Shown here piece by piece: positions 31,852 to 64,000 of a stretch of 64,000 nt of DNA. A program made the translations under genes and the position numbers. Each line of letters starts with the position of its first letter. Position 1 is the first letter of the stretch. The notes below the pieces were generated by a model. The model was given only the letters and a program-made list of their open reading frames with translations. It did not search any database and had not been told where the DNA came from. The DNA comes from Candidatus Borrarchaeum weybense (GTDB lineage Archaea > Asgardarchaeota > Sifarchaeia > Borrarchaeales > Borrarchaeaceae), in NCBI GenBank assembly GCA_019057385.1, contig JAHQJS010000004.1, forward strand, positions 288,001-352,000. The letters run 5' to 3'.

Positions 31852-32250
31852 GTCAATCACCCCCTCACTTGTGAGGGGGCTTGTTCCGTGAGGAACAAGA
31901 GTAATTGGTTGATTAGCCTAAGAGAGGTCGTGGTGGAACACACATGACGGTATCTACGTTATCAGGAGAGTTAAAGAACACACCAAGGGATGCTTCTCTA
32001 GTCCCGTGCTCTGTAAACGGTGGTTTAAACAGAGAGGAAACTCTCAGTGATCACCGTAGAGTACTGACTGATAACTTTGGCGAAGAGAACCTACTCCCCT
32101 GGTGTTGGGAGCGGCGGGACTTGCGAGTACCCGTCATTAAAACACCACCCGAGGTTGGGTTACACCAATCCCTGTCTCCGCAGAAAGGGTTGTGTGGTCA
32201 AATACCTGACCTCAATTCCTCCCCCCAACACGGTGGGGGGTTTCCTTGAG
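31852..32250 (+). mobile_element. non-autonomous IS200/IS605 element carrying an IscB/IsrB-type omega (HEARO-like) RNA, no nuclease ORF
   Basis: Starts GTCAATCACCCC with hairpin; internal CTACGTT, GGATGCTTCTCTAGTCC..CTCT and TTGGCGAAGAG motifs; ends CAATTCCTCCCCCC...GGGGGGTTTCCTTGAG followed by GTAA (TTAC on the minus strand). Confidence 0.85.
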
Positions 32251-43922: not shown

Positions 43923-44153
43923 ATGTCAGCTGCAGATAAGCCAATAGAACTCTTACAACGATCTTTAAATGCAATCGTCCTGATAAAACTCAAAGGAGGA
44001 CGTGAAATTCGTGGAAAACTCCGTTCCTATGATCAACATATGAACCTTGTGCTAGAAGAGGCCGAGGAATTTAGGGCCGATGAGATAAAGGCTCTTGGAA
44101 AAATCATCGTTAGAGGCGATAATGTTATACTTATCTCACCACCTCCACGTTAA
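43923..44153 (+). CDS. Sm-like archaeal protein (SmAP/Lsm)
   Basis: GKLRSYDQHMNLVL, IVRGDNV. Confidence 0.95.
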   Translation: MSAADKPIELLQRSLNAIVLIKLKGGREIRGKLRSYDQHMNLVLEEAEEFRADEIKALGKIIVRGDNVILISPPPR

Positions 44154-44200
44154 TTACTATGCTATAAGGCTAAACTAACTTAACTACCAAGGTGAATACA

Positions 44201-44386
44201 ATGGGTAAAGGAACTCCCTCACTTGGAAAGAAAAATAGAAAGGTTCACATAATGTGTAGAAGATGTGGTCGTCGTAGTTATCACGTTCGCAAAAAACAGT
44301 GCGCCGCATGTGGTTTCGGTCGATCGAAAAGAATTAGACGTTATTCATGGACAAATAAGAAGGTAAACAAAGTAAGAGTAGTTTAG
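44201..44386 (+). CDS. rpl37e: 50S ribosomal protein L37e
   Basis: [19 protein letters not shown]. Confidence 0.96.
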
Positions 44387-44410
44387 CCTTTATTGTTATG
44401 TCAATTTTGT

Positions 44411-44548
44411 GGGCCGGTAGCTCAGCCTGGAAGATCGCCGCGTTGGCATCGCGGAGGAGCAGAATAGATGTTCTATTCTTCGCCGACCCGAGGGTTCAAA
44501 ATGAATTGGGATGACTTCCAATTCATGAAAATCCCTCCCGGTCCACCA
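44411..44548 (+). tRNA. tRNA-Ala(GGC) with two non-canonical introns (variable region and T-loop)
   Basis: GGGCCGG/CCGGTCC acceptor with G3:U70; CCGCG-TTGGCAT-CGCGG; GAGGG/CCCTC T-stem; encoded CCA; two ~30 nt hairpin inserts. Confidence 0.9.
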
Positions 44549-44583
44549 TTAATAAAAACACCCCTTGTGTAATTAATGTATAC

Positions 44584-44721
44584 GGGCGGGTGGTCTAGTT
44601 GGTTATGACGCCGCGTTGACGTCGCGGAGTATTCATACACTTGATGTATGGACCCGAAAGTCGTGAGTTCAAAGGAAAAAGGAGAGAATCTATCTTTCTG
44701 AAAATCTCACCCCGCCCACCA
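44584..44721 (+). tRNA. tRNA-Val(GAC) with two non-canonical introns (variable region and T-loop)
   Basis: GGGCGGG/CCCGCCC acceptor; CCGCG-TTGACGT-CGCGG; GTGAG/CTCAC T-stem; CCA. Confidence 0.9.
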
Positions 44722-44872
44722 TCTTATCCTAACTGTTTTTGACGAATAATTCAGTAAATAAGAATTATTAATCGTTAGATGAATATAGATCACACTAAAA
44801 TCCACTAGATTTTTAAATAGTCGAAAAACAATAAGGGAAAATGGCAAATAAAATTTTAAGTGGTGATCTTTT

Positions 44873-45319
44873 ATGAAAATTGGCGATCTTGAATTTCCCG
44901 AAGATCTATATTATTATGCAGAACATCATATTTGGTTGAAACAAGAAGAAGAAGAAGATAAAGTTAAAGTTGGTATGGATGCCTTTGGACAGAAGATAGC
45001 AGGTAAGATCCTTTTTGTGAGACTCCGTCCCGCAGGCAAAGCTACAAAAGTTGGAAAAACATTTGGAACACTGGAGACGGGGAAATGGGTAGGACCTTTG
45101 AAGTCACCAGTCGCTGGAACTATCGCCGAAGCTAATCCCGCAGTTAAAGACAATCCTTCCTTAGTTAATGATGATCCTTACGGCGAAGGATGGCTTCTTG
45201 TCGTTGAGCCTTCAGCTTTAGATGCCGATCTTGCAGGTCTCATAAAAGGCTCAGACCAGGACGCGATTACAAAATGGATCGAAGAAGAACAGCAAAAATA
45301 TGCTGACAAATTGGAGTAA
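44873..45319 (+). CDS. gcvH: glycine cleavage H-like lipoyl carrier
   Basis: LETGKW lipoyl lysine, SPVAG, NDDPYGEGW. Confidence 0.9.
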   Translation: MKIGDLEFPEDLYYYAEHHIWLKQEEEEDKVKVGMDAFGQKIAGKILFVRLRPAGKATKVGKTFGTLETGKWVGPLKSPVAGTIAEANPAVKDNPSLVNDDPYGEGWLLVVEPSALDADLAGLIKGSDQDAITKWIEEEQQKYADKLE

Positions 45320-45361
45320 AACGTATTTCTTTATTTCAATTTTCATTTCCACTTTTTTATA

Positions 45362-45814
45362 GTGGTGTTTGTAGTTATGTCACGAATCTATCCATGGAAG
45401 CATTATAGCCTTGTAGGTGTAGTAATCACTATATTTGGGCTTTCTCTAGTAGCTCAACTTCCAACTCTGTATCACGCTAGCCAAATTCTAGCAATTCAAA
45501 GCGCATCTATACTTATTTCAAGTCTTATTGGAGGCGGTCTAGCAGTTACTGGAGCAGCAATTCTGTTCACCGAAGGAATTGCCCGTAGAAGTAACCTTAG
45601 CGAAAGTCAAATACTTTATCCAACGTTAGGTGGATCTTTTATCTCCATCACAATCTATCTAGGAATCTATATGCTTTTTGCAGTGATTCTTTATATTCGC
45701 AAAATCCCGTACCTTTCCTTTGTTGATCCAGTTTTCCAGTTTTTGTTTTTAGTGATTGTTGCAGCTTTTGTGCTTCTACTTAGTGCGGCACTATTTGAAG
45801 AGAGAACCCGCTGA
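45362..45814 (+). CDS. hypothetical membrane protein
   Basis: four hydrophobic segments. Confidence 0.6.
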   Translation: MVFVVMSRIYPWKHYSLVGVVITIFGLSLVAQLPTLYHASQILAIQSASILISSLIGGGLAVTGAAILFTEGIARRSNLSESQILYPTLGGSFISITIYLGIYMLFAVILYIRKIPYLSFVDPVFQFLFLVIVAAFVLLLSAALFEERTR

Positions 45815-45934
45815 GTCAACGATCTAATTTCATTATGATACAGGACTTTGTTAAGAAACTGAGTGTTAGGTGCAAAAATTTATATACGAAGCCAGACTTT
45901 TCTGTCTAAGTCGAAAAAGTAATGGACTAAACAG

Positions 45935-46037
45935 GCGGCTGTAGCTTAGACAGGGAGAATTAAATAATCCTTTAATTACCTATAGCGTCGGACTGAAGAT
46001 CCGATTGTCGCAGGTTCAAATCCTGCCAGCCGCACCA
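45935..46037 (+). tRNA. tRNA-Phe(GAA) with D-arm intron
   Basis: GCGGCTG/CAGCCGC acceptor; TCGGA-CTGAAGA-TCCGA; GCAGG-TTCAAAT-CCTGC; AT-rich hairpin insert in the D arm. Confidence 0.9.
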
Positions 46038-46081
46038 TATTTCTTTTTAAAAATGCTTTGTGATACTTATCGCTTGAAATA

Positions 46082-46480
46082 TTATCCTCCTTGCATTTTT
46101 ACAAATAGTTTTCTATTACGTGGTCCATCGAATTCGCAGAAATATATTCCCTGCCAAACTCCTAGAGCAAGAGCACCATTTTCTATGATTACTGTACGAT
46201 CTGGACTAAAAAGTGATGACTTAATGTGAGCTGGAGAATTGCCTTCACTATGTTTATATGTGGCGTTAAATGGAACGATTTCATTTATGGATTCGATTAT
46301 ATCGCGAATAACATCCGGATCTGCATTTTCATTAATGGTAACGCCTGCCGTTGTATGTGGGACAAAAATAACACAAATGCCTTCTTGAATCCCTGATTTT
46401 CCAACCACTTTCTTGATCTGACTCGTGATATCAATTAGATCAACTTTTTTGTGGGTTTTAATTTCAAGTTTTTCTAACAT
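46082..46480 (-). CDS. YjbQ/UPF0047 family protein
   Basis: HTTAGVTINENADP, HSEGNS, LGVWQGIYFCEFDGPR. Confidence 0.93.
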   Translation of the reverse strand: MLEKLEIKTHKKVDLIDITSQIKKVVGKSGIQEGICVIFVPHTTAGVTINENADPDVIRDIIESINEIVPFNATYKHSEGNSPAHIKSSLFSPDRTVIIENGALALGVWQGIYFCEFDGPRNRKLFVKMQGG

Positions 46481-46534
46481 TTTTTATTCCTCCTTCTCTT
46501 AGAATAAAGTTATAACTAATTAATAAAAGGAGAT

Positions 46535-46671
46535 TGGTGCGGCCGCCGGGAACTCCCAATAGAAACGATATGTTCCTACTTTTTGAACCCGGGTTACTGA
46601 CTTGGAAGGCGTCCTCCGCATTTCCTCTTGAATATACGGCAGAGTCCTAAACCGCGCTAGACTACGGCCGC
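46535..46671 (-). tRNA. tRNA-Gly(TCC) with introns in the anticodon stem and T-loop
   Basis: GCGGCCG/CGGCCGC acceptor; CTG[insert]GC-CTTCCAA-GTCAG; CCGGG/CCCGG T-stem; CCA. Confidence 0.85.
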
Positions 46672-46730
46672 GCATTAATTTATAAAGATATAAAATCCAA
46701 TTCTGTTCCAAGATATATACCGAACTAAAA

Positions 46731-46837
46731 TGGTGCGGCTGCCGGGAATCTCAAAATGGGTTATATACCTCAATTTTTTTGAACCCGGGTCATCGACGTG
46801 GCAGGCCGAAGTCTTAGCCAGGCTGGACTACAGCCGC
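46731..46837 (-). tRNA. tRNA-Gly(GCC) with T-loop intron
   Basis: GCGGCTG/CAGCCGC acceptor; TCGGC-CTGCCAC-GTCGA; insert after TTCAA; CCA. Confidence 0.9.
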
Positions 46838-47040
46838 ACAATGTAAACTATATTCTAAGGAATTGAAACGTTTAACTTTTATTCAATTCAATTCCTATAT
46901 AGAGAAAAAGCTGTTTAAAAATGTTATGACAAACTGAAAATGCGATTTCTACTCATAACACATTTCTAGCAAACGGTATTTTGAAAAAAGAACTACTTAA
47001 TTTAGCAAAATCATTCGAGATCAACGCATAATGATTCAAT

Positions 47041-47745
47041 CTAAAAATCATTATTAAAGTCTATTTTTGATGATATTTCGTAAGAATAGAGTACTCTTGA
47101 TATAGCAACATGAGCATCCAGTGATATTTTACTTATAGAAACTACTTCATCTGCAATCTCCAATGTTTTCTTTTCAAATTGACCATGTGGGAATCCACCT
47201 ACAATAATTGCCAGTGGTTTGATTTCAACTGCCTTTTTCATTAAATTGTTTAATTCAACCTCTTTGCCTGTTTTAGAGAATAAAATTGTATGTTTTGGCT
47301 TTATTTCATCATGAAGTTCTTTTAAAGTCATTTCATGAATAGTAAGTAAACTGGATCCTTTTGGAGGTACTTTCCCCATCATGAACAATTGACTCATTAA
47401 CCCCGAAAAGCGGACATAATTACGTGGGAGTCTTACATTGGGATCTACCTGGATAACAAGATCATTCAAAGTATGTATGAAGATTTTTATGTATCCTGAT
47501 TTACATAGCGGTGTGCCTAAAATTGATAGAAGTGAGATATGTACTATATCAGGGCGTCCTCTTTTCTCATATGCTTTTGGATTATCTATAAAAAACGAGT
47601 GAATAGATTTGTCAAAAACAATGGTTTCTGGGGATTTTTTCTGTTTTTTAGCATATCTTCGAAATTTTGCCAGATTTCTAAATTCGACGGGGATTGATTC
47701 CAGTGCGGATTCTGCTAAAATGAAGTATAAAATAGAGTCTTTCAT
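47041..47745 (-). CDS. nep1: rRNA small subunit methyltransferase Nep1/EMG1
   Basis: RGRPDIVH, RLPRNY.RF.GL, GGFPHG. Confidence 0.93.
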   Translation of the reverse strand: MKDSILYFILAESALESIPVEFRNLAKFRRYAKKQKKSPETIVFDKSIHSFFIDNPKAYEKRGRPDIVHISLLSILGTPLCKSGYIKIFIHTLNDLVIQVDPNVRLPRNYVRFSGLMSQLFMMGKVPPKGSSLLTIHEMTLKELHDEIKPKHTILFSKTGKEVELNNLMKKAVEIKPLAIIVGGFPHGQFEKKTLEIADEVVSISKISLDAHVAISRVLYSYEISSKIDFNNDF

Positions 47746-47879
47746 TTTTTCTCCTTTAATAATGAAATATCTTTTAAATACAACTGGTTTTCGGTCTTCA
47801 TTGAAGCTTGACTACAAAAGGGAATAATTTTATAGATTTTCGTTCATATCACTTTTATCAAAGTTTTTGTGAGATCGTC

Positions 47880-48215
47880 ATGAAACGTCGTAGAAGAATA
47901 AATACTCGCTCCATAAAGAAAATTGCACGTGAAAGGATCGAACATCTTCTTGAATTAGCTAAGGCAGTATTTAGTACAGATAGTAATCTGGCACAAAGAT
48001 ATGTACAACTTGCCTTACGGATTGGTATGCGACATAAGGTCCGAATTCCACGATCTCAACGTTGGCAAATTTGTAAACATTGTCATTCATTATTAATTCC
48101 GGGTGTGACCTGTCACTCAAGATTACGTAACAAACGTGAACCACACATAGTTATAACATGCTATAAATGCAAAAATTACAGTAGATATCCCTATAAAGTG
48201 AAAAAACAACGTTAG
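47880..48215 (+). CDS. rnp4: RNase P protein component 4 (Rpp21)
   Basis: IARERIEHL, CKHC...C..C, RYPY. Confidence 0.92.
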   Translation: MKRRRRINTRSIKKIARERIEHLLELAKAVFSTDSNLAQRYVQLALRIGMRHKVRIPRSQRWQICKHCHSLLIPGVTCHSRLRNKREPHIVITCYKCKNYSRYPYKVKKQR

Positions 48216-48275
48216 TACTGCTTTCTCATGTAAAATTGAATCATTATTATGGGAGAAATATTTTAAACACTAGTA

Positions 48276-48998
48276 ATGGTATTAGGCTTCAATTACTCGA
48301 ATTATCCAGAGGGCTTTGATTTGAAGATTACAATTCTTATTCCTGCTTATAATGAAGCACATTCGATCAAAGAAGTAATTCGAAGAATAAAAGCCCTCAA
48401 TCTTGGTTATAAGTACGAAATTCTTGTTGTAGATGATGGATCAACTGATGAAACATCAGAAATCGTCAAAAAAATGAATAATGTAAGACTAATTACGCAT
48501 AAAATGAATAAAGGTAAAGGTACAGCATTAAAAACTGGTTTTAACGCCGCAAATGGGGATATAGTTGTTATCCAAGATGCAGATATGGAGTATTTACCGA
48601 AAGATATCCCGAGTTTAATTAAACCTTTGATTGAAGGTAAAGCCGATGTAGTTTATGGATCAAGATTCAAAGGAAAACTTTATGGTATGACTTTTTCTCA
48701 TGCTTTAGGCAACTTAGGACTGACTTTGGCAACATCTTTACTTTTTGGTACAAGGGTAACAGATATGATGACTGGATATAAGGTTTTTCGAAAATATGTA
48801 CTTGAAAACATCAATATACAGGCAGAACGATTTGAGGTTGAACCTGACATTACAGGAAGAATATTATTGAATAGATATCGATTAGTCGAATTGCCTATCG
48901 AATATCATAAACGGAAAAAAGGAAAAGCAAAAATCAGTAAACTTGATGGTGTACGGTCCCTGATTTGGTTGTTAAAAATTCGCTTTAGGCGTCATTGA
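48276..48998 (+). CDS. GT2 glycosyltransferase (DPM1-like)
   Basis: IPAYNE, VDDGSTD, QDADMEY, GSRF. Confidence 0.92.
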   Translation: MVLGFNYSNYPEGFDLKITILIPAYNEAHSIKEVIRRIKALNLGYKYEILVVDDGSTDETSEIVKKMNNVRLITHKMNKGKGTALKTGFNAANGDIVVIQDADMEYLPKDIPSLIKPLIEGKADVVYGSRFKGKLYGMTFSHALGNLGLTLATSLLFGTRVTDMMTGYKVFRKYVLENINIQAERFEVEPDITGRILLNRYRLVELPIEYHKRKKGKAKISKLDGVRSLIWLLKIRFRRH

Positions 48999-49018
48999 AT
49001 TAGATTGCATTGAGTTAA

Positions 49019-49945
49019 TCAAAGAAGCAATGTTAGAATTGCCTTTTGTGCATGTAATCTGTTTTCCGCTTGATCCCACACAACTGAATTAGGTCCATCA
49101 ATCACCTCGTCAGTAATTTCTTGACCGCGATGTGCTGGAAGGCAATGCATTACAATGACATTTATTAGTGCATTGTTTAGTAATTCTTGATTTACTTGAA
49201 ATGGTGGAAAAACTTCCATTCTTTCCTCTGCTTCAGCCTCTTGCCCCATTGAAATAAAGGTATCAGTATAGACAACATCTGCATCAAGAACTGCGTCTTG
49301 AGGATCGTGAACTATCTGAACTTCAGAATCAAATATTCTTGCGTTGTCTTTTGCTAAATCAATAACATCTTCTAATGGTTCATAGTTTTCCGGACAGCCC
49401 ACTGATATATTGATGCCTAGTTTTGAGCATCCTATAAGTAAAGAATTACAGACATTATTTCCATCTCCAACATAGCTTATCTTCAAATTCTCAAAATTTT
49501 TCCTCTTCTCCTTAATAGTCAAAAGGTCAGCCAATATTTGACAGGGATGGAATAAATCACTTAGACCGTTTATAACTGGGACTTGTGAGAAATCTGCAAG
49601 ATCTAATAAGTCTTCATGTGAGTAAACACGTGCCATAATTCCATCTACATATCGGGCTAGTGTACGCGCAGTATCAGGGATAGTTTCTCCTCTACCAAGT
49701 TGCAAATCTTTTGCGCCTAAAAATAGGGCATAACCTCCCAATTGGCGCATAGCCACTTCAAAGGATACACGAGTTCTAGTACTTGATTTTTCAAAAATCA
49801 TAGCTAATGTTTTTCCATTTAGTATCTCAGACGACTCTCCACGAAGATACATCTTCTTAAGATCGCTCGCAATATCCAACATATAATGAATTTCTTCAAA
49901 TGAAAAATCTTGCAATGTAAAGAAATCCTGTCCTCGAATATCCAT
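49019..49945 (-). CDS. argF: ornithine carbamoyltransferase
   Basis: STRTR, HPCQ, HCLP. Confidence 0.96.
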   Translation of the reverse strand: MDIRGQDFFTLQDFSFEEIHYMLDIASDLKKMYLRGESSEILNGKTLAMIFEKSSTRTRVSFEVAMRQLGGYALFLGAKDLQLGRGETIPDTARTLARYVDGIMARVYSHEDLLDLADFSQVPVINGLSDLFHPCQILADLLTIKEKRKNFENLKISYVGDGNNVCNSLLIGCSKLGINISVGCPENYEPLEDVIDLAKDNARIFDSEVQIVHDPQDAVLDADVVYTDTFISMGQEAEAEERMEVFPPFQVNQELLNNALINVIVMHCLPAHRGQEITDEVIDGPNSVVWDQAENRLHAQKAILTLLL

Positions 49946-50010
49946 AAGGTCCTCCTCCTTTTTCTAAATAGGAGTTAACTAACTTAATTTAAGATCTAAT
50001 AATAATTATA

Positions 50011-50940
50011 TTATATAGCACTTTCTGGTACGATCTTTTCAGCAAACTTTTTAGGATAAAATGCATCTAGATCTTTGTATTCTTGACCGATTCCAATAAA
50101 TACAATGGGCTTTTTCGTAACATGAGCAATAGAAATAGCAGCCCCTCCTTTTGCATCAGCATCAACTTTAGTCAGTATTGAAGCATCAATACCTACAGCC
50201 TCATTGAATTCGCGAGCTTGTTCGACGGCATCATTACCAGCAAGACTGTCTCCTACAAAGACTGTAATCACATTCGCGTCTTCGATTCGTTTAAGAACAC
50301 GAACGATCTTTTCCATCTCTCCCATAAGGTTCTTATTGGTTTGCATTCTCCCAGCAGTATCAATTAGAACAATATCTATGTTTTTTGCAATTGCATGACT
50401 AACAGCATCAAAGGCAACAGCAGCAGAATCCGAGCCATATTTGTGTTTGATTACTTTAACTCCAAGTTTGTTTGCATGAATTTCTATTTGCTCTATGCTT
50501 CCTGCACGGAAAGTATCCGATGCTGCAAGGACTACAGAAAAACCCTTTTTTTGGAATAGACTAGTAAGCTTGGCTAAAGTTGTTGTTTTTCCTGTACCAT
50601 TAACTCCTAAAAATACAATCGCTAAAGGTTGCCCCTGTTCTTTGCCTTTTTTTGCTAACTCAAAAAGATCTATACCCTCTACTTTAAGGATTTCTAGAAT
50701 TGTATTTCTTAAGGCACTATAGACGAATTTCTTTGTGCTCTTAAGACGACCTACCTTCTCACCAGTCAACTGTTGTTTCATAAGTTCTCCAATTTCAGCT
50801 GCCACGGAAAATGCAACGTCGTTTTGTATTAATATTATTTTCAAAGATTCAAGAACATCCTCTAACTGGTCTTCACTCAATGTCTTCGATGATATTTTTT
50901 CTGTAAAACCCTGAAGACCACTTCTTAGTTTTTCAAACAT
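50011..50940 (-). CDS. ftsY: SRP receptor FtsY; first ~38 codons apparently supplied by the integrated element
   Basis: GVNGTGKTT, DTFRAG, DTAGR, TKVD; start at MFEKL by homology with the fragment at 61407. Confidence 0.95.
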   Translation of the reverse strand: MFEKLRSGLQGFTEKISSKTLSEDQLEDVLESLKIILIQNDVAFSVAAEIGELMKQQLTGEKVGRLKSTKKFVYSALRNTILEILKVEGIDLFELAKKGKEQGQPLAIVFLGVNGTGKTTTLAKLTSLFQKKGFSVVLAASDTFRAGSIEQIEIHANKLGVKVIKHKYGSDSAAVAFDAVSHAIAKNIDIVLIDTAGRMQTNKNLMGEMEKIVRVLKRIEDANVITVFVGDSLAGNDAVEQAREFNEAVGIDASILTKVDADAKGGAAISIAHVTKKPIVFIGIGQEYKDLDAFYPKKFAEKIVPESAI

Positions 50941-51309
50941 AGATGTTTTCTCTCCGAGCATATGAAGCATTAAGGATTGATTGATTGCTTGACGCAAGTT
51001 TGTGACATATCAATCAGGTTTTTTAATATACGTTTTGATTCCGAATTTGAAAACTCAATTTTATCGAATAATTATTCAAAGAACATTTTAACACGCATTC
51101 ATCTCTTGTTGAATTATAAAAGATGTTATATCTGATGAGGATGTCTTACCTATTTTATAGTATTCTTGAGCAATAGTATGAATATATGTCGAATAGCTTT
51201 CTTTTATAAAAAATGTGAAAAATGCCCTTTTTCTCTTATATCAGATAATAATTAAGAATAACGAAAGGAGTGAGATGATCAGCACAAAACCGATCATCTC
51301 CTTTTGGAT

Positions 51310-51475
51310 GATTTCAGCTGCGACAGAAAGCGCGACATCGTTTTCGTGGGTATGACATTTTTCGTCCCTTGCGAGTCATCCGTCCCCTTCGATGAGGCGT
51401 CGGACCTCTCAGGTTCAGTCTCATGCACAAGAACGTGTCCCTCATGTTTTATGAGGAACATACCGCCTTGCAACT
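51310..51475 (-). ncRNA. putative guide RNA 1: structured scaffold (51346-~51475) plus 3' guide matching ftsY (51310-51345)
   Basis: Scaffold repeated at 52452-~52585; TATA box TTTATATAGG at 51496-51505; guide is 28/36 identical to 50791-50826. Confidence 0.75.
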
Positions 51476-51541
51476 CATATATTCGCTTACAAAGACCTAT
51501 ATAAACACCACTCTTCATAACAAGGACTCCCAGTTCCATAC

Positions 51542-52354
51542 TTACATGTCCTCTTTCAGGTCATCAAGATAAAGGTTGACCATTAATAAGAGATGGTTTT
51601 TCAAAGAAGAAAAACCATAGGTTAGTGCTTCGTTGATTTTATCAAGGTCATTGCATTTTCGAATAAAGGTATAAAGTGCAAAAGGAGAGTATTGGCGCAG
51701 TTCTATCTCTCTTTTTAACGCGTTGAAATCTATCTCTTCTGATTCTGCTACATGATAACGTGAAAATGCAGTCCATCTAAATTTTCGAGAAATCATTGCA
51801 GACCATCTATCATAATTTTGTAGTAAAGAAAGCAGAGGAAAGTCTTTTTCATCTATAGTATAATTATGATGGTTCTTTGCGAGCTGATAGACTTCGTCAT
51901 TAATTATATCAACATCAGTATAAATTTTGCTTGGATGTCGATCAGTGCTTACAAAATCATGCAGGAGCATTGCTATAATTAACTTTTCCTGCACATCTGA
52001 GAGTTTTGGAAGTTTCTTACGTATGTTAATCTTTCTCGAAATATAGAGGGGTTTTTTCTTGAATTCACTCACAGAAGTCCAAAAGATTTGTCCCACCCCC
52101 TCACATGTATAACTCCCGACACTATCAATAGCTAGTGCTTTTTCAAGTTTATGTTCTGGAACGATGAACTCAACATTACCAAACCATGCCCTAAAGGTCA
52201 TTGGAGCACGTCTTTGTCCTACCGTTAATTTTCCGAATACCCTGGGACGACCATTTATAGTCATCGCACCAACATCGGTAACTCCAAAATGTCTACGCCT
52301 TGAAACGATAGGAGTTTTTGTATAACCAATCAATTTAAAGTATTTTTGTGACAT
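51542..52354 (-). CDS. reduced Cas5-like RAMP fused to HD domain
   Basis: N-terminal strand + TP, Gly-rich VGSYTCEGVGQI loop; then LLHD, HH and D residues of an HD hydrolase. Confidence 0.65.
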   Translation of the reverse strand: MSQKYFKLIGYTKTPIVSRRRHFGVTDVGAMTINGRPRVFGKLTVGQRRAPMTFRAWFGNVEFIVPEHKLEKALAIDSVGSYTCEGVGQIFWTSVSEFKKKPLYISRKINIRKKLPKLSDVQEKLIIAMLLHDFVSTDRHPSKIYTDVDIINDEVYQLAKNHHNYTIDEKDFPLLSLLQNYDRWSAMISRKFRWTAFSRYHVAESEEIDFNALKREIELRQYSPFALYTFIRKCNDLDKINEALTYGFSSLKNHLLLMVNLYLDDLKEDM

Positions 52355-52417
52355 TTATTCCCCTCATTTGAGGTTTTACCTCCTCTTTAAACAAAAGAGA
52401 GGAGATATAAACCTTGC

Positions 52418-61921: not shown

Positions 61922-62158
61922 TTATATTCGTGATAATTCAGAAGTAAGGCTCTTCAGTACAGGATCGGTAATATCTTCATCTTGAATTTGTGAAATTTCA
62001 GTTATTTTTATGAATTTTCTTGGAACTTTGTGTTTACTCCCTATAAGGGATAAAACGTTTTCAATTGCATGGGTTTCTTTTAGGGCTTTGATCTCTTTGG
62101 CGAATGGGATCTTTTTACTCTTTGCTCTATAGACGCCCTTAATCCGAAATACTGACAA
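61922..62158 (-). CDS. rpl18a: 50S ribosomal protein L18Ae/LX (eL20)
   Basis: FRIKG, FAKEIKA, GSKHKVPR; TTG start after a GAGGTG SD. Confidence 0.9.
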   Translation of the reverse strand: MSVFRIKGVYRAKSKKIPFAKEIKALKETHAIENVLSLIGSKHKVPRKFIKITEISQIQDEDITDPVLKSLTSELSRI

Positions 62159-62404
62159 TAAAAACACCTCTATTTTCAGTGAAACCTTTTGTGCACATCT
62201 TAACATATTATCTTTTAACCTTTTACATTTGGGTTGAGAATTTTTGCTTTGTAAAAAAACTCTTGCTGTGAAAATTGGTTTTTAAATTGCACAATGAAAA
62301 GCTTAATAATTTTTATCCTAGCAAGGTCATTCATCTTGCAAAGACTTCGTTCTGAGTGATATTTATCTGGCGAGAGTCCTTTCTGAGAGTAAAATGGATT
62401 AACA

Positions 62405-63085
62405 GTGTACCTGGTGAACTGTGTGGTTATTGTTCAGAATAACTTTAATGGAATCGCCTCAGTCGGCATAATCTCACTGGCTACTGATAGTTATGTATTG
62501 GTTCCAAGAAACCTTCCAAAAAGAGTAGTCAATAAGCTACATGAGGTATTTGCTGCGCCAATTATCAAAACTTCAATTTATCAATCGCATCTAATTGGAA
62601 TATTAGCCGCTGGTAATAAATTTGGTCTATTAACTCATTTTCTTTCTGATGATGATGAGATTGAATATCTTAAGAAGGAAATTGGTATCCCTGTTGAAAG
62701 AATGAAAAGTAAACTAACTGTCGGAAATTGCATTCTTGCTAATGACAAAGGCGCAATTGCTGCGGATGAATTTGGTAAAGAAGACATTAAGCAAATCACT
62801 GATATTCTCAATGTAGAAGTTTTGCAAGGAAAGATCGTCAATTCATCTTTAATCGGATCACTTGGAGCAGCAAGTAATGAAGGCGCTATGGTGCACCCAT
62901 TAGCTACCGAAAAGGAATTAGAATGGATTAGCGAAGGCTTGAAAGTACATTCTGATATTGGGACCGTTAACAGAGGTGTTCCATATGTCTCAACAGGAAT
63001 CTTAGTTAATTCACAGGGGTGCGTTACAGGCGAAGAGACTACAGGTCCTGAATTAGTAAGAATCTCACAAACATTCGCACTTTAA
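62405..63085 (+). CDS. eif6: translation initiation factor 6 (aIF6)
   Basis: GNCILANDKGA, VHP, GTVNRG, TTGPEL. Confidence 0.95.
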   Translation: MYLVNCVVIVQNNFNGIASVGIISLATDSYVLVPRNLPKRVVNKLHEVFAAPIIKTSIYQSHLIGILAAGNKFGLLTHFLSDDDEIEYLKKEIGIPVERMKSKLTVGNCILANDKGAIAADEFGKEDIKQITDILNVEVLQGKIVNSSLIGSLGAASNEGAMVHPLATEKELEWISEGLKVHSDIGTVNRGVPYVSTGILVNSQGCVTGEETTGPELVRISQTFAL

Positions 63086-63167
63086 ACTCTTATTTATTAT
63101 TGAGTATATAGTAATTACATTAATTTTTGAAAAAACAAAAAGAGAAATATCTATTGAAATAAAATGT

Positions 63168-63455
63168 TCATTTTGCTAAGTAAACTTCACATATCCCTTC
63201 GGTGTCCTTCACTGCCCTAACTCTTATTTTTCTCGGAGGTTTTTCGATACCTCGCTTCCAAAGTTCTTCATTGAGTTCTGGATCAATTCGAATGTCAATA
63301 GGATTTACTTTCATATGACGTTCTATGTAGTGTTTCAGAATCTTTATCGCACGAACTGTGCGTTTATGCCGTGGGGCGTGCTTTACGTCACGAAATGGAA
63401 TAGTATATAACTCTTCTTTTTCAATTTCTTCATCTAATATTTCTTCATCTGACAT
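63168..63455 (-). CDS. rpl31e: 50S ribosomal protein L31e
   Basis: YTIP, RHMK, LNEELWKRGIEKPPRKIRV. Confidence 0.96.
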   Translation of the reverse strand: MSDEEILDEEIEKEELYTIPFRDVKHAPRHKRTVRAIKILKHYIERHMKVNPIDIRIDPELNEELWKRGIEKPPRKIRVRAVKDTEGICEVYLAK

Positions 63456-63476
63456 TTCGTTTACGCATCCTTTCTA

Positions 63477-63632
63477 CTATTTCTTTAAGCGTGTACGTCG
63501 CCAATGCCTACTTTTAGGATGTGTACGCACTCTTCTTCGAGTTCTAACAACTATCCATGCAGGAACGCTTCTTGATTGCTTCAGTGCTTTTCCTAGTCGC
63601 AATTTTTTTCCTAAAGGTTTATATCGTGCCAA
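63477..63632 (-). CDS. rpl39e: 50S ribosomal protein L39e (not in ORF track)
   Basis: TTG start; [25 protein letters not shown]...[10 protein letters not shown]. Confidence 0.95.
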
Positions 63633-63645
63633 TGACAAGAATCTC

Positions 63646-63990
63646 CTATTTTCGTGTGATTTTAATATCTCTTTGTTTATCAGTCAATCTTCGTAAAATG
63701 GTTTTTAATTGGTCATCAGTTAATACATTGCCAAGTCGTCCAGCTTGTGCAAGTTGAATTAATTGAAGTTCAACCGCTTCAGCCAATTCGGGTTTTACAA
63801 TTTTTATTCGATTCAATCGTTCTCTTGCTTCAGGAGTCAATATCTGTCGGAGTATTGCTTGTTTCTGGGCTTCTAGTTCCTGTTGCATTTGTGCTTGTCG
63901 TTCTTGTTCTCCTTGTTGCTGTTGTAACTCAAGCATACGTCTTTTCTTTAATTCTTCAAGTTCTTCATCCGACAAGGTTTTTCCCTCCAA
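63646..63990 (-). CDS. PDCD5-like DNA-binding protein
   Basis: [21 protein letters not shown]. Confidence 0.93.
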
Positions 63991-64000
63991 GTTAAAAAAT

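Follow-up and report, generated by a model that had tools for sequence, protein, structure and literature searches.

A predicted scaffolded RNA of an ARAMP island in Candidatus Borrarchaeum weybense carries a putative guide to the unoccupied ftsY allele

Why does a 36-nt segment at the edge of an inserted island repeat, in diverged form, twelve codons of the neighbouring ftsY gene? The question arises in a 64,000-nt stretch of DNA from Candidatus Borrarchaeum weybense (the window, to whose positions coordinates refer unless a contig is named), part of a 4.18-Mb genome (G000) that we compared with three congeners (G001, G002 and G004), one relative (G003) and a near-conspecific metagenome contig (L081) with flanks 93-95% identical to G000. 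The segment, guide 1 (51310..51345, minus strand), is a copy of native-type ftsY codons 39-50 and forms the variable 3' tail of a structured RNA, scaffold B; its counterpart in the resident gene lies at 50791..50826 on the same strand. A sequence-only reading had proposed that the tail is an RNA guide derived from the ftsY of a related host, that it abuts the insertion junction, and that it would pair with DNA. That model appears largely right as regards guide, junction and DNA pairing, and mistaken in making the guide the foreign party.

The alignment of 51345..51310 with 50826..50791, both on the minus strand, is confirmed at 28 of 36 identical positions, six of the eight mismatches being third codon positions. 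They fall at guide positions 1, 9, 12, 15, 16, 21, 24 and 36, and the two segments translate as ENDVALSVAAEI (guide 1) and QNDVAFSVAAEI (resident target); a repeat search of the window recovered the same pair. The match exceeds chance, since ftsY is the sole non-self match of the tail in a genome-wide blastn search (E = 7.5e-4, 519 nt away) and since its local score of 22 compares with a maximum of 12 for the same tail against the DNA downstream of about 40 other scaffold loci. It begins, as had been claimed, at the first base past the scaffold, 8 nt beyond the terminal GAC-N7-GTC hairpin.

The surrounding gene is split. Functional ftsY occupies 50011..50940 on the minus strand, with its ATG at 50940 (TIGR00064, 1e-95), while a displaced native leader with ftsY codons 1-38 lies directly after pfdA at 61294..61469 (minus strand). 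The pfdA and ftsY genes are contiguous in G004, G002, G001 and L081, which represent empty sites. Homology of the window to these empty-site genomes breaks at 61294, after ftsY codon 38, and resumes at the ATG at 50940, so that about 10.5 kb has been inserted between codons 38 and 39. The insertion is thus polymorphic among relatives, and its junction is as first described: the displaced fragment (61407..61294) ends with codon 38 and the 36-mer starts with codon 39.

Which of the two copies is native can be read from the empty alleles. Codons 1-38 of the displaced fragment are identical to L081 at 111 of 114 nucleotides and to G004 at 107 of 114; the same codons of the working gene agree with L081 at only 70 of 114. 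An N-terminus of the type found in the working gene is native on contig L079, where it stands in an ordinary context after prefoldin. From the L081 comparison and the L079 N-terminus it follows that working ftsY is a chimera, in which the native remainder is fused in frame to codons 1 to about 44 of xenologous origin (50811..50940, minus strand, including the first 16 nt of the guide-matching segment), preceded by a leader and promoter that are likewise xenologous. Within the target, resident ftsY differs from L081 at positions 1, 9, 15 and 16 and is identical to it from position 17 onward, whereas guide 1 agrees with L081 at 32 of 36 positions (mismatches 12, 21, 24 and 36). The protein reading of the guide, ENDVALSVAAEI, is that of native FtsY in G001 and L081; in the working gene the reading is QNDVAF. 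Derivation of the guide from the ftsY of another host is therefore not supported. On these comparisons it is the resident ftsY that is foreign and guide 1 that is of native type, and the guide-resident mismatches are orthologue divergence extending 16 nt into the target, not drift of an imported guide.

Upstream of the xenologous codons lies a non-coding part of the same module (50941..51253, minus strand), composed of an AT-rich stretch, a presumed promoter and a leader that is homologous to the native pfdA-ftsY leader yet diverged from it. We refer to the whole as the rescue module. Its non-coding part occurs only once in the genome and recurs in strains L078 (about 98% identity) and L080 (about 82%), both of which have the same island end and the QNDVAF type in their working gene; the island and guide of L078 are the same as here (guide 36/36 identical), and L080 carries a diverged copy. 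As to the origin of the module, we found no second copy in the genome or its relatives and no pfdA remnant inside it.

The 36-mer has the surroundings expected of the end of a small RNA. Scaffold B (51354..51470, minus strand) is separated from guide 1 by an 8-nt tag (51346..51353, minus strand), which runs from the terminal hairpin to the guide. A TATA-like box (51498..51505, minus strand) lies about 28 nt upstream of the scaffold 5' end, overlapping last codons in the P270 gene region, and by reading of the sequences a box at this distance recurs at other class-B scaffold copies. Nine nucleotides past the guide, a terminator-like hairpin (51300..51272; -19 kcal/mol) followed by a T-rich run occupies 51254..51300 on the minus strand, and the hairpin is conserved in L078 and L080. 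Scaffold B is about 95% identical to scaffold A of the same island; they follow the P270 gene and the RAMP gene, respectively. The genome holds 24 scaffold copies, with further ones in relatives. In an alignment of 35 distinct copies, the 5' end forms a 10-bp hairpin, several of whose pairs show compensatory changes; a long-range helix is conserved, there is an inner GAGGU/GCCUC hairpin, and the terminal GAC-N7-GTC hairpin is followed by eight semi-conserved bases. Together with the family-wide mismatch period described below, the TATA box, covarying scaffold and terminator support the proposal that the 36-mer would behave as a guide, and we infer that the RNA is transcribed and processed.

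The scaffold is covered by no Rfam family. A profile search with nhmmer recovered it within its own genus and in a single further genus of the class, and detected none beside the P270 homologues of more distant genera. The sole Rfam match in the window is a HEARO (IscB-type omega) RNA at 31852-32094 (plus strand; 131 bits, above the Rfam gathering score), which is unrelated to the ARAMP island. Two small ORFs that overlie the scaffolds (51294-51539 and 52376-52612) were rejected as spurious: they belong to no family, and the ftsY-like reading is in another frame than the ORF. A mini-scaffold with only the TATA box and terminal hairpin part (61228..61279, minus strand) lies at the insert's left end, and homologues of it stand upstream of purA in G000 (C3:20289-20365) and in G003 (L036:1470-1530), the latter with a tail, terminator and rescue arrangement. 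Elsewhere, in G001 (contig C73; L051:1185-1453, minus strand), two tandem scaffolds are found directly upstream of rps19e, and because the second ends 8 nt before the ATG, rps19e would be transcribed there as a scaffold fusion; the corresponding site in G000 has no scaffold.

The proteins of the island identify it as an ARAMP system. ARAMP (Asgard RAMP) systems with divergent Cas1 were reportedly described by Makarova et al. in the CRISPR J in 2020. Here, three genes are encoded on the minus strand: a Hel308/Ski2-like helicase fused to Cas1 (53765..57775, 1336 aa; Cas1 domain PF01867 at 1e-7), with six paralogues in the genome; a Csm3/Cas7-like RAMP (52609..53418, 269 aa; PF03787 at 4e-6, PADLOC Csm3 at 3e-7); and P270 (51542..52354, 270 aa), to which the structure model and homologues assign an N-terminal RAMP fold and a C-terminal HD-motif domain. 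The P270 model has a pLDDT of 91, with an N-terminal half similar to class 1 RAMP subunits. Foldseek gave only weak matches to it, the best at E 0.007 and none reaching 0.001, but most among the matches listed are class 1 RAMP subunits. The HD motif (H132, D133, H140, H163, D182) is invariant across 24 homologues. The P270 family comprises only 82 clusters at 50% identity. Of 85 genera of this phylum, 7 yielded homologues. Thus the scanned ORFs hold a Cas7-like RAMP, a second RAMP with an HD nuclease motif and a Cas1; Cas2 was absent from the Pfam matches of the scanned island ORFs, and no array-like repeats were found at 44000-64000. A search of the literature found no report of a helicase-Cas1 fusion. 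The left 3.5 kb of the island contains, besides the mini-scaffold, a 746-aa TPR protein (58229-60469) and a 188-aa ORF (60641-61207) with an HhH-GPD match below the cutoff (E = 4e-4), both on the plus strand. A different ARAMP island, on contig C3, is flanked by repeat families of about 320 and 350 nt (L055; G000 C3:99117-99436 and C3:90932-91285) that resemble MITEs and have dozens of copies in congeners.

The mismatches between tails and targets follow the geometry of a Cas7 filament. In complexes with a Cas7 backbone, every sixth base of the guide is left unpaired, so mismatches at multiples of six (6, 12, 18 and onward) are tolerated; the crRNA of such class 1 systems also has an 8-nt 5' handle, cut from the repeat at the base of a hairpin. 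When positions are counted from the 9th nt after the GTN of the terminal hairpin, skipping the 8-nt tag that sets the register, every locus falls into the same phase, and no fit is obtained unless the guide is taken to begin 8 nt past that hairpin. Across independent loci, 25 of 38 tail-target mismatches occupy multiples of six, each other phase having two or three. Class-B tails, compared with the nearest reference of each locus, have 14 of 23 mismatches in phase (p = 2e-6), and non-coding targets 14 of 18 (p = 2e-8). As a control for codon wobble, 9 of 11 wobble mismatches at in-frame coding loci lie on even multiples of three (p = 0.03). The individual class-B mismatches are at 18, 24 and 30 (purA), 18 and 20 (pyrD), 3 and 12 (L037), 6 (PRC-barrel gene), 26, 29, 36, 42, 48, 60, 65 and 72 (L035), and 12, 21 and 24 (ftsY against L081). 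Taken by itself, guide 1 shows no significant period: of its four differences from L081, three occupy multiples of six, and all four are wobble positions. The wobble mismatches had been taken as the signature of a foreign guide, an interpretation that is not supported. Because the phasing is that of the Cas7 backbone, the tails would be working guides with an 8-nt handle, and we consider this periodicity the strongest evidence for such a role.

Counted in this way, guide 1 has a single pairing-position mismatch to the empty L081 allele, as against five (1, 9, 15, 16 and 21) to resident ftsY.

What kind of nucleic acid the guides would pair with is suggested by the other scaffold of the island. 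Scaffold A (52405..52576, minus strand) carries a class-A guide (52451..52405) that also contains the P270 promoter and that matches the BRE/TATA region of the RAMP gene promoter (53455..53501, minus strand), about 1.05 kb upstream, with mismatches at 6, 12, 18, 22 and 30. In a second lineage, represented by three paralogous loci, class-A tails mismatch at 6, 9, 18, 24, 30, 36, 42 and 43. Since the target lies upstream of the transcription start and has the same sense as the guide, the partner must be DNA. This supports the earlier proposal that the same-sense guide 1 would also pair with DNA rather than with the transcript, and it suggests that the class-A guide is autoregulatory, acting on the promoter DNA of its own RAMP.

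The arrangement at ftsY recurs. Elsewhere a scaffold leads into a 25-78-nt tail and a hairpin, beyond which come a new gene end or promoter and then, within the adjacent gene, the tail sequence for a second time. At no fewer than six loci besides ftsY the segment repeated by the tail lies in that gene, at the right junction or close to it: pyrD, the PRC-barrel gene, a locus on contig C5 of G000, the purA 5'UTR (G003, L036), a small ORF in G004 (L035), and L037. The PRC-barrel island, a second autonomous element of 6.9 kb, is absent from G004 and G002, whose native sequence matches the tail at 31 of 32 positions, the sole mismatch being at position 6. The resident copy mismatches at 6, 13, 15, 18 and 22, of which 13, 15 and 22 are pairing positions, so defined; the empty alleles have no pairing-position mismatch. 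The resident targets at pyrD, purA and L037 lack the first 7-13 guide positions, lost through the insertion itself. The insert beside pyrD (L054, G000 C3:60790-66040) is 5.25 kb long, replaces a 130-nt intergenic region between pyrD and a divergent gene, and supplies new start codons and promoters to both. L037 (G004:C24:10162-10700, also L097) is a protein-less element of about 540 nt near a gene 3' end, made up of a scaffold, a 30-nt tail and a hairpin. Its target segment of 22-30 nt exists in three copies, namely left flank, tail and right flank; the tail is contiguous with neither flank, and the right-junction copy is a dead 3' gene fragment. At L025, neither the tail nor the terminator is related to the flank.

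Not every copy carries a guide of its own. At nine or more additional loci the scaffold end is followed immediately by native host DNA, and a separate tail module or terminator is lacking; on this evidence the scaffold marks the right boundary of the inserted DNA, and the tail at these loci is simple flank. A strong hairpin with a T-run starts 24-46 nt past the scaffold in 13 loci, an enrichment over random sites that is modest overall (p = 0.008), and the loci fall into two classes, one with the hairpin and one abutting the flank. The junctions vary too. Duplications are absent at ftsY, measure 8-9 bp at the PRC-barrel gene, and amount to 22 bp inside the target at L037, and no single integration chemistry accounts for the junctions at ftsY, the PRC-barrel gene, L037 and pyrD. 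Simple Campbell-type, circle and target-duplication models, worked through by hand, all needed additional assumptions to yield left flank, island, guide, rescue and target in that order.

We propose the following reading of the ftsY locus. A small RNA with a dedicated promoter, comprising about 125 nt of scaffold, then the 8-nt tag, the 36-nt guide and a terminator, would belong to the ARAMP island with its helicase-Cas1 fusion, Csm3-like Cas7 and RAMP-HD protein. The island lies exactly at the 5' edge of the wild-type sequence of the guide and has split ftsY at codons 38/39. The rescue module (terminator, promoter, leader and ftsY codons 1 to about 44 of another lineage) rebuilds the essential gene and leaves the resident copy mismatched to the guide at five pairing positions. 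A Cas7-like filament loaded with the RNA would recognise the double-stranded DNA of an unoccupied, native-type ftsY; recognition would direct or favour insertion of the island, with helicase-Cas1 as the putative integrase, and the occupied allele would be spared. This homing reading fits the finding that, in every case examined, the guide has a better target in the empty site than in the occupied one. We regard it as the best explanation, although we put its chances at about even: the guide may find unoccupied ftsY alleles, and the rescue module may both restore the gene and escape the guide.

The same RNA could instead act on the gene that the cell has. The ribonucleoprotein would then bind the resident host gene in the manner of CRISPRi, and guide 1 would dampen expression of ftsY from its island-borne promoter. 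Non-destructive binding does seem to be part of the system, as class-A guides pair near-perfectly with their own RAMP promoters outside the every-sixth positions, and at purA (L036), pyrD and L037 the resident copies match the guide at all remaining pairing positions. Yet these same three residents have lost the initial guide positions, the right-junction copy at L037 is a dead gene remnant, and at ftsY and the PRC-barrel gene the resident copies carry five and three pairing-position mismatches where the empty alleles of other strains have one and none. In strain L080, moreover, identity between tail and resident has decayed to 22 of 33 without compensating changes, and we consider regulation of the resident gene unlikely. 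Another possible role is exclusion or defence, in which the guide steers an HD-nuclease ribonucleoprotein against incoming native-type ftsY DNA and so protects the occupied allele, with no part in insertion. The retained HD motif of P270 and the better match of the guide to foreign native alleles than to the resident one would suit such a role, and a defensive function of ARAMP has been considered in the literature (PMC8730458). It is nevertheless improbable in our judgement: the guide lies at the exact junction of a polymorphic insertion, no examined tail matched foreign (non-host) sequence, and a multi-copy system with protein-less mini-elements fits mobility better than defence.

A further possibility is that the 36-mer guides nothing. 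It could be a remnant of native ftsY left by two separate events, insertion of the island at codon 38/39 and insertion or recombination of a foreign ftsY 5' module after codon 50, while the scaffold RNA works without a specific tail. The displaced fragment and the tail are indeed exactly contiguous, and native host DNA does stand directly at the scaffold end in the flank-abutting loci. The tail also evolves at about the rate of neutral spacer, its identity between G000 and L080 (81%) being close to that of AT-rich spacer (82%), which counts against the homing reading. Against this stand the phasing across the family, which points to selection on tails as guides, the L037 tail that continues neither flank, the L025 tail and terminator without relation to the flank, and the recurrence of a 25-45-nt tail followed by a strong hairpin, which chance debris would not be expected to produce. 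In its pure form, with the tail as in-situ flank between two independent insertions, the idea is further weakened by the periodicity, the three copies at L037 and the tail-specific changes at 12, 24 and 36, and we think it quite unlikely that guide 1 is only a remnant.

How the homing reading relates to known systems can now be considered. To our knowledge, ARAMP and HRAMP have long been catalogued as array-less CRISPR derivatives with no known RNA or mechanism. The island shares with ARAMP its gene set (an unusual Cas1 together with two RAMPs, one Cas7-like and the other bearing a nuclease domain), the lack of a CRISPR array, and the occurrence of multiple copies in few genera of one archaeal phylum; it differs in having a structured scaffold RNA with guides, putative targets identified by sequence, and insertion polymorphism. 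Reviews describe ARAMP as array-less and mechanistically enigmatic and mention no RNA component (PMC8730458, PMC12669027), and our search of this review literature found no description of an ARAMP-associated RNA.

Among mobile elements, the CRISPR-associated transposons (CASTs; types I-F3, I-B and V-K with homing spacers) offer a close parallel, in that a nuclease-poor RNA-guided complex resides in a mobile island and a guide matches a conserved host gene right beside the island end. Here a guide of the element matches the attachment site by its end at ftsY, the PRC-barrel gene, pyrD, purA, L035 and L037. In contrast to CASTs, there are no Tn7-type genes among the island ORFs scanned (TnsA/B/C and TniQ were absent from the Pfam matches of these, a subset of all island ORFs), the candidate integrase being the helicase-Cas1 fusion; an array is replaced by a scaffold of only about 125 nt; and insertion is at the target edge, not 50-65 bp away, with the island rebuilding the gene that it splits. 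The omega RNAs of IS200/IS605 and IS607 elements (TnpB, IscB) likewise have a scaffold at the outward end of the element, adjoining host sequence as guide, the unoccupied site as target, and a presumed role in homing or retention. The effector here is of multi-subunit Cas7 type, not a RuvC nuclease, the island proteins described being helicase-Cas1 and RAMPs, and many copies carry an internalised guide and terminator behind a scaffold without an Rfam match. Casposons combine Cas1 with a family B polymerase and terminal inverted repeats; here no PolB was found among the scanned island ORFs and no terminal inverted repeat by repeat search, and the duplications of 0, 8-9 or 22 bp compare with 14-15 bp in casposons. 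Guides that regulate Cas genes (tracr-L of Cas9; CreR and mini-array guides of types I and V) resemble the class-A guide in its partial complementarity to the promoter of its own effector, which implies autorepression. That likeness extends only to the sister RNA (52451..52405); the best match of guide 1 is a host allele that the cell no longer has.

A further parallel is artificial. Synthetic home-and-rescue and cleave-and-rescue drives link a guide against a wild-type essential gene to a recoded rescue copy, mismatched to the guide, within the gene. Outside engineered gene drives, we know of no other case in which a wild-type-specific guide is paired with a rescue copy of an essential gene that mismatches it. 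The ftsY island would share with them both the guide specific for the wild type and the mismatched rescue copy in an essential gene, differing in being natural and prokaryotic, and on sequence grounds it looks like a natural RNA-guided "home and rescue" element. Whether the idea extends to ARAMP islands at large is a more tentative matter, and we think it possible rather than probable that they are Cas1-based RNA-guided mobile elements, in which a scaffolded non-CRISPR guide on a Cas7-like filament marks the wild-type allele, helicase-Cas1 integrates at the guide-target edge, and essential genes receive a recoded rescue, as in a natural home-and-rescue drive.

In summary, the scaffold RNA with its Cas7-signature tails would supply the guide that ARAMP systems had seemed to lack, and would name DNA targets for it, namely the promoter of the system itself and specific host genes. 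If helicase-Cas1 is the integrase, Cas1 would be tied to RNA-guided mobility for the first time, and ARAMP would take a place between casposons, CRISPR adaptation and CASTs, with a compact guide format free of arrays.
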